A stretch of 64,000 nt of DNA from positions 64,001 through 128,000 of the forward strand of contig BTWA01000004.1 of assembly GCA_045863295.1 (NCBI GenBank), given 5' to 3'. Shown piece after piece: positions 16,140 through 18,398 of the stretch. Every line of letters starts with the position of its first letter. Position 1 is the first letter of the stretch. This DNA comes from Candidatus Hydrogenedentota bacterium (GTDB lineage: Bacteria > Hydrogenedentota > Hydrogenedentia > Hydrogenedentales > SLHB01). A program made the translations under genes and the position numbers. A model generated the notes under the pieces. It did not search any database and was not told the origin of the DNA. It was given only the letters and a program-made list of their open reading frames with translations.

Positions 16140-16871
16140 ATGCTGCTGAAAGATTTGGGTCAGCGTATTCGCGGCCAACGCGAAAAGCGCGGCCTCAAGC
16201 AACAGGATATAGCCAACGCCCTGAATGTGAGCCCACAAGCGGTCTCGAAATGGGAACGCGGCGAAAACGCGCCGGACATCACCATTCTTTCCGGCTTGGC
16301 GAGGCTGTTGGGCGTTACGACCGACTGGTTGCTCGGCTCGAATGCCGAGGGTAAAGATGTATTTGAAGCCACGGTGCTGGCGACCAGCGTCGACGGCGCA
16401 TATAAGCGTTCGCTGGAAATGCAGCCGCGCGATTTCGCGCTCTGGGCCAATGCGCTTTTCTATCAGTTGACTGAGTTGATCCTCCGGCACGACGGAGTGC
16501 CGGTAAAATACATGGGCGACCGATCGCTCAGTTTCTTTTCAGGACCGGACCACCGCAGACGCGCCGTGGATGCCGCCATGAAAGCGCGAAGCCAAATCGG
16601 GTCCACCCTGCGAATTGGGTTGCACAGCGGTCCCATCTATCTGGGGTCGGTGGGCCATCCGGATTACGCACGGCCCGACATCATGGGCGAAGTCGTGAAT
16701 GTCGCATTCCTTACGATGGAATGGGCAGAGCGCGAAACGAAAAGCGGCATCGCGGCTACCGCTGCCGCCTTGGAAGGATTCGATGAACCGCCCGCGGGCG
16801 GCAAGGATAAGAATGTGAAGTTTCTGGGTCTCGAACGGCCCGTTTCCGTGCGCGAAATCAAGGCAAGCTAA
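16140..16871 (+). CDS. XRE-family HTH regulator fused to degenerate class III adenylate/guanylate cyclase domain
   Basis: N-terminal QQDIANALNVSPQAVSKWERGENAPD (HTH_3); C-terminal VKYMGD, LRIGLHSGPIYLG, DIMGEVVNVA cyclase motifs; first metal Asp and catalytic Arg substituted. Confidence 0.85.
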   Translation: MLLKDLGQRIRGQREKRGLKQQDIANALNVSPQAVSKWERGENAPDITILSGLARLLGVTTDWLLGSNAEGKDVFEATVLATSVDGAYKRSLEMQPRDFALWANALFYQLTELILRHDGVPVKYMGDRSLSFFSGPDHRRRAVDAAMKARSQIGSTLRIGLHSGPIYLGSVGHPDYARPDIMGEVVNVAFLTMEWAERETKSGIAATAAALEGFDEPPAGGKDKNVKFLGLERPVSVREIKAS

Positions 16872-16889
16872 AAACAAGGATCCCACACA

Positions 16890-18341
16890 ATGGCAACCGT
16901 CGCAAAATCATCGGTGTTTCAGGATATCCCCTACAAGGTCGCGGACATGAGCCTCGCGGAATGGGGACGAAAAGAACTGGACATGGCCGAAAAGGAAATG
17001 CCCGGGCTGATGGCCATTCGAGAGAAGTACGCGAAGTCGCAGCCGCTCGCCGGCAAGCGTGTTTCCGGCTCGCTGCACATGACCATTCAGACCGCCGTCC
17101 TTATGGAAACACTGAAGGCGCTCGGCGCGGATGTGCGATGGGCCAGCTGCAACATCTATTCCACGCAAGACCACGCCGCCGCCGCAGTTGCCGAAGCGGG
17201 ATTCCCCGTCTTCGCATGGAAAGGCGAAACTCTGGAGGAATACTGGTGGTGCACCTATCAGGCGCTCACATGGCCGGACGGCAGCGGACCGCAACTCATC
17301 GTCGATGATGGCGGCGACGCTACCCTCCTGATTCACCGTGGCTTTGAGTTCGAAAACCACTTCAACGAACACGGCAAACTCCCCGCAATTTCGAAAGCCA
17401 ACAAGGAAATCGAAATCATCGATACGCTGCTGCACACCGTGCACGCGGAAAATCCGAGCCGCTGGCATGATACCGTCGCGGAATGGATCGGCGTATCAGA
17501 AGAAACGACCACCGGAGTGCACCGCCTCTACCACATGATGCGCGAAGGAAAGCTTCTCACCCGCGCCATCAATGTCAACGATTCGGTAACCAAATCGAAG
17601 TTCGACAACCTCTACGGGTGCCGCGAATCTCTCGCAGACGGCATCAAGCGCGCTACCGACGTGATGATGGCGGGCAAAGTGGTCGTCGTTGCCGGTTATG
17701 GCGATGTGGGCAAAGGCTGTGCCCAAGCTATGCGCGGCCTCGGTTCGCGCGTGCTCATCACCGAAATCGACCCGATCTGCGCGTTGCAGGCCTGCATGGA
17801 AGGCTACCAAGTCACCACAATGGACGAAGCCGCCGCGCTGGGCGACATCTTTGTGACGACGACCGGCTGTTGCGACGTCATCACCGGCGAACACATGAAG
17901 AAAATGAAGGATGAAGCCATCCTCTGCAACATCGGCCACTTCGATTCCGAAATCGAAATGAGCTGGCTCGAATCACAAAAGGACATCAAGGAAATAAACA
18001 TCAAGCCGCAAGTTGACAAGTTTGTCTTCCCCGACGGCAAGTCCCTCATCGTCCTCGCGCGCGGCCGCCTTGTAAACCTCGGATGCGCCACGGGCCACCC
18101 CTCCTTCGTTATGTCGAATTCCTTCGCGAACCAAACACTCGCACAGGTGGCCCTCGCCGTCGATACGGACAAGTACGAGATGGGCAAGGTATACACACTA
18201 CCGAAGGAACTCGACGAGGAAGTCGCCCGCCTTCACCTCGGCAAGCTCGGTGCGAAATTGGAAACCCTGACCAAAGCGCAGTCCGACTACCTCGGCGTGC
18301 CGGTGCAGGGCCCATACAAGCCGGAGCACTACCGGTACTAA
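16890..18341 (+). CDS. ahcY: Adenosylhomocysteinase (SAH hydrolase)
   Basis: [76 protein letters not shown]. Confidence 0.98.
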
Positions 18342-18364
18342 ATCCGGCCAATGCAACGCACGTT

Positions 18365-18398
18365 ACACCCCCAGGCATGCGCCTGGGGGTGTTTTTTT
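18365..18398 (+). terminator. Rho-independent terminator after ahcY
   Basis: ACACCCCCAGGC-atgc-GCCTGGGGGTGT perfect 12-bp stem followed by T-run. Confidence 0.9.

Follow-up and report, generated by a model that had tools for sequence, protein, structure and literature searches.

A small putative transcription factor is encoded directly upstream of ahcY, the gene for S-adenosyl-L-homocysteine hydrolase, in a 64,000-nucleotide stretch of contig BTWA01000004.1 (hereafter the window) from a Candidatus Hydrogenedentota bacterium. The protein combines an N-terminal helix–turn–helix (HTH) head of the XRE type with a C-terminal domain of the class III cyclase fold, in which two catalytic residues are substituted, and its gene is preceded by a double operator box. 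It is very probably a transcription factor of ahcY and, where the box in front of metH (a methionine synthase gene) is strong, of metH as well. Taken as a whole, the data favour, with some confidence, a local regulator of the S-adenosylhomocysteine (SAH) cycle that would contain a sensor for an adenosyl ligand. The architecture, the substitutions, the synteny, the operator and the co-occurrence of operator and regulator were all established by computation.

Locus, operator and proposed target promoters

The regulator gene (16140–16871, + strand) is an open reading frame (ORF) of 243 codons and a stop. The ATG at 16140 is preferred as the start over an upstream TTG at 16068, since homologues share that methionine. 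The stop codon TAA (16869–16871) is followed by an 18-nt spacer (16872–16889, + strand), which holds the ahcY ribosome-binding site AAGGA at 16876–16880, and then by the ahcY start codon at 16890. The ahcY gene (16890–18341, + strand) encodes a protein of 483 amino acids identified by TIGR00936 (636 bits, with a cut-off of 497.6 bits) and by the Pfam family AdoHcyase (477 bits). Downstream lies an intrinsic terminator (18365–18398, + strand) consisting of a 12-pair hairpin with nine G–C pairs at 18365–18392 and a T run extending to 18398. The preliminary description of this DNA had stated that the two genes are 18 nt apart and share one terminator, and both statements stand. Co-transcription is likely, because the gap is this short, no convincing terminator lies between the genes and a single one follows ahcY. 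Terminator-like matches elsewhere in the scan, including one at 16513–16530 inside the regulator gene, numbered five, against 4.4 expected from shuffled sequences. The absence of a SAH riboswitch at the locus, likewise noted earlier, is borne out: no Rfam family had a significant match in 15000–19500, where the sole match scored 16.4 bits at the terminator against a cut-off of 50, and the covariance model of the SAH riboswitch (RF01057) had no match in this region at E up to 1. A search of the whole genome with RF01057 gave no match but carries no weight, as its control matched none of the 14 control genomes.

A double box is found upstream of the regulator gene in all 30 phylum loci. The proximal box (16053–16070, + strand), here GCAACGACTCCGTTATTG, is a 17-bp imperfect palindrome of the CAAYGA-N5-TCRTTG type with the consensus TCAACGAATGCGTCATTG. 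The distal box (16032–16049, + strand) is a degenerate copy of the same 17/18-bp unit (TCAACC...CG...), placed exactly 21 bp upstream of the proximal box, and this spacing is kept in 29 aligned loci. A conserved hexamer, TTGCCn, begins at the 3′ TTG of the proximal box, and a TAnnnT motif lies 17 nt downstream of it. The putative −35 element is TTGCCG (16068–16073, + strand), which overlaps the 3′ end of the proximal box and is assigned from the sequence and the conserved TTG; the putative −10 element is TAGCAT (16091–16096, + strand), assigned from columns of the T/A...T type that are conserved at +38 to +43, counted from where the box begins. A scan of 15500–18700 for the strict sigma-70 consensus found no promoter, and both assignments rest on conservation. 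If they are read correctly, the box centres would be at about −41.5 and −62.5 from the transcription start.

With a 40-bp matrix built from the other 29 loci, the site in front of the regulator gene reached 30.9 bits, the top score in the 6.3-Mb genome, and the next match had 20.4 bits. An 18-bp single-box matrix was too weak, giving the same site 18.2 bits and a rank of about 15th. The putative binding site is palindromic and situated at the regulator's own promoter, as is the case for XRE (Cro/C1) regulators. The regulator promoters of Latescibacterota carry the double box too (26.6–27.8 bits); both of their units are full CAAC-N9-ATTG copies, which suggests that the ATTG arm is part of the operator and more than a −35 element. 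The DNA fragment 16050–16140, which had been proposed for mobility-shift assays, is displaced in relation to these boxes, as part of the operator (16032–16070) falls outside it.

The regulator gene is present in 35 of the 135 Hydrogenedentota genomes (30/53 in the window's own family, 1/1 in family f5 and 3/15 in family f10), and ahcY in 124 of the 135. The phylum has 36 copies of the regulator, 32 of them directly before ahcY, two cut by contig ends and two unlinked. Among the 30 fetched loci, ahcY is directly downstream on the same strand in 29, and the remaining locus is at a contig edge; coordinates show three further linked copies (G082, G093 and a second copy in G107), and the copy in G074 is cut by a contig end. 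The unlinked copies belong to two genomes of genus g59 (G072 and G073), where the regulator is on another contig than ahcY; in G072 it is flanked by one gene for a transporter of the AcrB type and another for a PagL-like protein. When named genomes were scanned with the full-length alignment, an HTH pattern was selected; four full-length relatives were found among 80 loci, the rest being mostly unrelated XRE proteins of Firmicutes. All four are followed by ahcY: two from Latescibacterota, one from an unclassified metagenome-assembled genome and one from a Hydrogenedentales bin, the last of which is not independent, its upstream region being equal to that of locus L010. Two Clostridia loci with 26–28% identity (L089 and L105) had no ahcY within the flank. 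One homologue is named from Sumerlaeota.

The box follows the regulator at other promoters as well. In front of metH, a double box scoring more than 10 bits was found in 11 of 20 regulator-bearing genomes (maximum 35.9), assigned to genera g30, g13, g17 and g20, versus 0 of 20 genomes without the regulator (maximum 1.8). The control gene metK had such a box in none of the 20 regulator-bearing genomes (maximum 2.3). The double box before ahcY was absent from all 18 sampled regulator-less genomes (400 nt, best score at most −1.7 bits), and in these 18 relatives neither Rfam elements nor a SAH riboswitch were found before ahcY; their promoters look ordinary. In the three g59 genomes, all of which have the regulator and ahcY on different contigs, the ahcY promoter keeps two TCAAC boxes 21 bp apart (8.7–16.2 bits), and a box at an unlinked ahcY is what would be predicted for a trans-acting factor. 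Across five genomes of g30, 19 exact matches to CAAC-N5-CGTCATTG were counted, against two for the reversed control. Eight of them scored at least 29 bits and comprised four regulator promoters and four metH promoters; no stop-free frame runs across six of these eight, and the spacing to TAnnnT in the metH promoters equals that in the regulator promoters. The other 11 matches were rejected as coding or chance occurrences, with at most 17.5 bits by the 40-bp matrix and positions in stop-free frames. This distribution across promoters points to a regulon of the regulator–ahcY pair and metH, i.e. the steps from SAH to methionine. Comparative genomics gives the proposed regulatory link to ahcY and metH good support.

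In the regulator's own genome, an intergenic site located 160 nt upstream of the metH ATG scored 17.1 bits. No box was found there before metK, metF (which is on a different contig from ahcY), purA, two MetE-like genes or a second homocysteine methyltransferase gene. With the 40-bp matrix, the regulator's own promoter alone stands out in this genome, and three of the next matches lie in stop-free frames. A 17.5-bit match before rpsD was taken as a probable chance occurrence, its proximal box lacking CAAC. A candidate second site in Latescibacterota was also rejected: the sole extra double-box match falls, in each of the two genomes, within the coding sequence of mreB.

Some further features of these loci may be noted. 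Just upstream of and within the double-box match before the own metH (G000:C2:72390–72460), the unit ACAACCCCG occurs twice, 13 nt apart. The mreB match (L265, L266) covers 39 bp with two mismatches in the 5′ part of the gene, so conserved coding DNA can mimic the motif. Genome G107 has the regulator–ahcY pair twice, on contigs C107 and C299, possibly owing to duplication, strain mixture or contamination (3% stated). In G132, a 10-contig assembly, ahcY (L025, C10) and metH (L252, C1) each align as two pieces in different frames, possibly reflecting frameshifts or assembly indels.

The cyclase-fold domain and its predicted dimer

The XRE-type HTH comprises residues 10–64 (16167–16331, + strand). 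It matches the Pfam family HTH_3 (PF01381) with 61.5 bits against a cut-off of 23 and resembles the heads of 434-type and P22 C2 repressors (PDB matches with E from 2e-07 to 1.3e-06). The pseudo-cyclase domain comprises about residues 73–243 (16356–16868, + strand). Its match to Guanylate_cyc (PF00211) at residues 78–191 is marginal, with 24.4 bits against a cut-off of 21.9 (E = 2.5e-05). The AlphaFold2 model, built with 30 homologues, has a mean predicted local distance difference test (pLDDT) value of 88.7 and a predicted template-modelling score (pTM) of 0.67. A Foldseek search matched its C-terminal 170 residues to solved class III cyclases (2w01, E = 3e-13), with template-modelling scores normalised by target length of 0.71–0.80 to 2w01, 1wc1, 3r5g and 6sir. 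Given this agreement between AlphaFold2 and Foldseek, the cyclase fold is no longer in doubt despite the weak Pfam match.

Catalysis in class III cyclases depends on six residues: two metal-binding aspartates, a substrate pair and a transition-state Asn and Arg. The corresponding positions were read from a phmmer alignment to the cyclase Rv1625c (PDB code 4p2f). The first metal Asp is replaced with Ser83 (LATSVDG in the query, LFADIVG in 4p2f). Lys123 and Asp127 are retained (VKYMGD in the query, IKVSGD in 4p2f), as are Asp180 and Asn187 (PDIMGEVVNVAF in the query, YDVWGDAVNVAS in 4p2f). Leu191 follows a VNVA(S/F) stretch, one residue beyond the point where the HMMER alignment to 4p2f stops, and occupies what we take to be the position of the transition-state Arg in the class III consensus. 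The six-residue signature is incomplete at Ser83 and Leu191 and intact at the other four positions, in agreement with the preliminary description, which had listed the first metal Asp and the transition-state Arg as replaced and the Lys, Asp, second Asp and Asn as retained. Both substitutions, whose conservation it had raised as a point to check, are indeed conserved: in 30 close homologues (58–70% identical), L191 is invariant, together with K123, D127, D180, N187 and F190, and S83 is at least 90% conserved. A loss of catalysis, leaving a ‘dead cyclase’, is a reasonable interpretation of these residues.

Modelling of the dimer with SAH, also suggested earlier, yielded a predicted homodimer: two copies of the protein with two SAH molecules scored 0.92, versus 0.00 for the best of three controls, a value reached by 20 of 30 proteins solved as same-chain pairs and by 1 of 23 solved as single chains. 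The dimer runs share at least 78% of contacts, and the pLDDT of the partner is at least 85. The predicted interface is symmetric and lies wholly within residues 73–233. In the models, Asn187 and Leu191 of one chain face residues 86–91 and 126 of the other, a head-to-tail arrangement like that of class III cyclases. Since dimers of class III cyclases have already been solved, this result may reflect likeness to known structures and is no proof.

The wider family, the proposed mechanism and its alternatives

A search of 1.8 billion representatives gave about 50 clusters at E ≤ 1e-30, and most of the 46,288 weaker matches were HTH-only. A metagenome scan seeded on the cyclase half (a six-row alignment) gave 70 loci, which were sorted by the residues at positions 83, 123, 127, 180, 187 and 191. 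In the xKDDN[L/F] class, to which the window protein belongs (type SKDDNL; position 83 is S, T, A, G or D), ahcY is downstream in 21 of the 31 loci with at least 160 nt of downstream sequence; among loci outside this class, it is downstream in 1 of 27. A distant SKDDNL member with 45% identity (L188:3279–6364) has metE, the gene for cobalamin-independent methionine synthase, 192 nt downstream (Meth_synt_2, 449 bits), and locus L145 (AKDDNL) has the order purA–regulator–ahcY. At locus L178, a MetE-like N-terminal region lies downstream. The linkage of orthologues to methyl-cycle genes, on which the preliminary description had made its reading depend, is seen in 32 of 36 phylum copies, in the two Latescibacterota, in the 21 same-class metagenomic loci and, beyond ahcY, in the single member before metE and the second operator before metH.

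Other clades have other neighbours. The GKPDSL type (seven loci) has purA, the adenylosuccinate synthetase gene, directly downstream in five, L153:3219–5317, L164:1064–3239, L155, L159 and L167, with gaps of 14–24 nt and purA Pfam scores of 542 and 522 bits; there is none at L161, and L183 ends at a contig edge. The DKDDVR type (L176, L180:152–2655 and L182:3201–5395) is followed by a DEAD-box helicase gene and has a double box of 29.5–30.9 bits before the regulator. The DKDDNR type (L156 and L157), with all six canonical residues, has neighbours without a Pfam match. The six canonical residues are also found, by alignment, in representative P0127 and in the partial loci L189, L191, L192 and L194. 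Judging from their residues, such six-residue fusions may have kept adenylyl cyclase activity alongside their DNA-binding head.

Regulator genes of these clades, too, have the double box in front of them (31.8 bits at L153, 30.9 at L180 and 20.6 at L156), which makes this mode of DNA recognition a family trait. Every HTH-bearing clade retains Lys123 and Asp180, the two residues by which adenylyl cyclases select adenine, except at locus L186, which has Ala at 180; the metal and transition-state positions vary with the neighbour gene (ahcY/metE, purA or helicase). It is conceivable, at slightly less than even chances, that the whole family consists of one-component regulators in which the cyclase active site has been re-tuned by clade for adenine metabolites: SAH in members next to ahcY, metH or metE, an adenine nucleotide in those next to purA and possibly ATP turnover or cyclic AMP (cAMP) synthesis on DNA in the six-residue clades. 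The operator grammar would be common to all of them: two copies of CAAYGA-N5-TCRTTG with a spacing of 21 bp, located near −41.5 and −62.5.

According to the favoured explanation, the protein would be a one-component transcription factor that forms a two-fold symmetric, head-to-tail dimer through its cyclase-fold domain. The dimer would set two XRE-type HTH heads on the 17-bp imperfect palindrome, its geometry suiting the operator in that a two-fold dimer fits a palindrome; the presence of two operators in helical register suggests two dimers acting together. With the proximal of the two sites overlapping the −35 element, the protein would control its own regulator–ahcY operon and, in many relatives, the metH promoter, a control that is probably weak in its own genome. 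The former active sites, being at the dimer interface, would be the natural place for a ligand. The domain would sense an adenine-containing metabolite there, SAH being the leading candidate, and ligand binding would alter promoter occupancy so that ahcY and metH rise as SAH accumulates. That the domain senses an adenosyl ligand seems a little more probable than the opposite. SAH itself is a tentative choice, at somewhat under even odds, to which the retained adenine pair, the loss of triphosphate-handling residues and the targets ahcY, metH and metE point; by the same logic, the purA neighbour points to an adenine nucleotide in the sister clade. Repression and class II-type activation are about equally probable, as a site at −41.5 over a poor −35 element fits either. 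There is a precedent for activation from this position, since lambda CI bound near −42 activates PRM.

Several points weigh against this explanation. The linkage is not universal: two of the 36 phylum copies are unlinked, and 10 of the 31 same-class metagenomic loci have no downstream ahcY. The compared genomes are kin, mostly from one order, and fewer independent events lie behind the counts than the figures suggest; the evidence from unlinked regulators comes from the single genus g59 and hence represents one event. The metH box above 10 bits is limited to 11 of the 20 regulator-bearing genomes. In the own genome the metH site is weak, with a degenerate 5′ half of the proximal box and a rank of about fifth to sixth at 17.4 bits, and the unrelated match before rpsD scores 17.5 bits. 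Latescibacterota show no second intergenic double-box site. As the clades with purA, helicase or unknown neighbours carry the double box as well, the box by itself attests to autoregulation in the family and not to methyl-cycle specificity. The inferred features are the geometry of the dimer on DNA, the existence and identity of the ligand, the promoter elements, the start site and whether regulation is positive or negative. The ligand-type residues emphasised in the preliminary description are present and invariant; the invariant ‘pocket’ (residues 121–126, 165–187 and 191) also forms part of the predicted dimer interface, so the conservation may be structural and, alone, is no proof of a ligand site.

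Among the alternatives, a ligand other than SAH survives best: unlikely, with an appreciable chance. The domain might respond to adenosine, AMP or ATP, S-adenosylmethionine (SAM), cAMP or homocysteine, in which case regulation of ahcY and metH would track either purine or energy status or the level of homocysteine. The sister clade before purA and the single purA–regulator–ahcY locus tie the family to adenine nucleotide supply, and homocysteine is the product of one target enzyme and the substrate of the other. ATP is disfavoured, because the metal Asp and the transition-state Arg, which hold the triphosphate in cyclases, are missing. MetR offers a precedent for homocysteine-sensing control of metE and metH, whereas the known dedicated ahcY regulators, SahR and the SAH riboswitch, respond to SAH (PMC4239095).

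It is distinctly unlikely that the protein regulates ahcY and metH with a cyclase fold that is purely a dimerisation module, control being exerted by its own level or by another partner. The predicted interface does cover the family-invariant residues, the ligand is a proposal and not an observation, and XRE heads depend on a partner domain to dimerise. Ligand control is usual, however, for regulators dedicated to a single metabolic operon, and a re-tuned pocket better fits the pattern seen in the HTH-bearing clades, where the adenine-pair Lys and Asp persist throughout, one locus excepted, and the catalytic positions shift with the neighbour gene.

A domain that still has enzymatic activity on or near DNA, be it that of a weak or atypical nucleotide cyclase or of some other nucleotidyl transferase, appears very improbable. 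Four of the six canonical residues remain, Asp occupies position 83 in loci L151, L154, L160, L165 and L166, and all six residues are present in L156, L157 and P0127; these members indicate a descent of the family from active cyclases, some of which it may still contain. Against this stand the replacement of Arg with Leu, rarely Phe, in every ahcY-linked xKDDN[L/F] member and the drift of position 83 among S, T, A, G and D, as would be expected once a site has become dispensable; in the cyclases studied, changing one of these positions alone removes most of the activity.

The view that the pairing with ahcY is an inherited gene order without regulatory meaning, the protein controlling itself or unrelated genes only, can appeal to the predominance of one order among the compared genomes and to the double box preceding the regulator gene in all clades whatever follows, but it is scarcely credible in the face of the likely co-transcription suggested by the gap and terminator layout, the box that stays at ahcY where the regulator has moved away, the restriction of the metH box to regulator-bearing genomes and the recurrence of the pairing in a second phylum, Latescibacterota.

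Known systems, significance and neighbouring genes

SAH inhibits methyltransferases, and cells keep its removal tightly controlled; to our knowledge, the control of ahcY is largely unknown outside Proteobacteria and a few riboswitch-bearing groups. The closest functional parallel is SahR, which consists of an ArsR-type HTH and a methyltransferase-like domain. The regulator described here differs in having an XRE head and a class III cyclase fold; it had been considered distinct from SahR from the outset, and no ArsR/HTH_20 or methyltransferase match was found in it using Pfam and NCBIfam. SahR belongs to the ArsR family and regulates SAM-cycle genes of Alpha-, Delta- and some Gammaproteobacteria in response to SAH; its core regulon includes ahcY, metH, metF and metK, and its occurrence is correlated with SAH recycling by the AhcY route (PMC4239095). 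Like SahR, the present protein would be a dedicated, autoregulated, palindrome-binding factor with targets that include ahcY and metH and with a disabled enzyme fold as its sensor half (PMC4239095). Operators thus stand before ahcY and another SAM-cycle gene in each case, a likeness of function only. Whereas metF and metK belong to the SahR core, metK has no box in any of the 20 relatives and metF has none in the own genome.

The SAH riboswitch RF01057 likewise provides local SAH-dependent control of ahcY but is an RNA, and MetR, a homocysteine-sensing activator of the LysR type, controls the methionine synthase genes metE and metH through a cycle intermediate (PMC4239095) but belongs to an unrelated family and is not known to control ahcY. 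The class III cyclases Cya2 (2w01), CyaC (1wc1), CyaB (3r5g) and Rv1625c (4p2f) resemble the C-terminal domain in their fold, head-to-tail dimer (predicted here), Lys/Asp pair, second metal Asp and Asn. They differ from it in that, here, substitutions of the first metal Asp and the transition-state Arg run through the whole family and a DNA-binding head is fused to the N-terminus. The phage XRE repressors 434, P22 C2 and lambda CI have a similar HTH head and tandem palindromes in helical register at their own promoters, but their C-terminal dimerisation domain is peptidase-like or helical, and they control lysogeny and not metabolism.

Proteins with a cyclase homology domain (CHD) and a LuxR-type HTH have the reverse order, the cyclase being N-terminal and the HTH C-terminal, and are much larger. 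They occur in Mycobacterium and include Rv0386, an active cyclase (PMC3466318). This is the only published CHD–HTH architecture that was found, and the available part of the source describes no link to ahcY (PMC3466318). The preliminary description knew of no report of the present architecture as an ahcY regulator; the literature search, which did not cover subscription journals, found neither an XRE–cyclase regulator nor such a regulator of ahcY. As far as ligand sensing is concerned, a metabolite-sensing regulator of the SAH cycle built on an unprecedented sensor fold is a reasonable proposal from the sequence data.

If correct, this reading would provide the uncultured phyla Hydrogenedentota and Latescibacterota, as well as the source of the homologue named from Sumerlaeota, with a protein-based switch of the SAH cycle. 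As far as the literature search shows, it would be the first class III cyclase fold to serve as the sensor of a transcription factor. It would also be a natural example of an enzyme active site recycled as a ligand sensor, and the sister clades next to purA and metE make such a ligand code testable. A small protein with a defined 40-bp operator is a possible biosensor for SAH or related metabolites.

The neighbouring genes in the window are a DinB-family gene (15541–16056, − strand), a gene for a DUF1353 protein (18351–18947, + strand) and a gene for a rhomboid protease with N-terminal zinc ribbons (19008–20141, + strand). The longest ORF of the DinB-family gene extends into the operator; its Pfam match begins only at residue 58.

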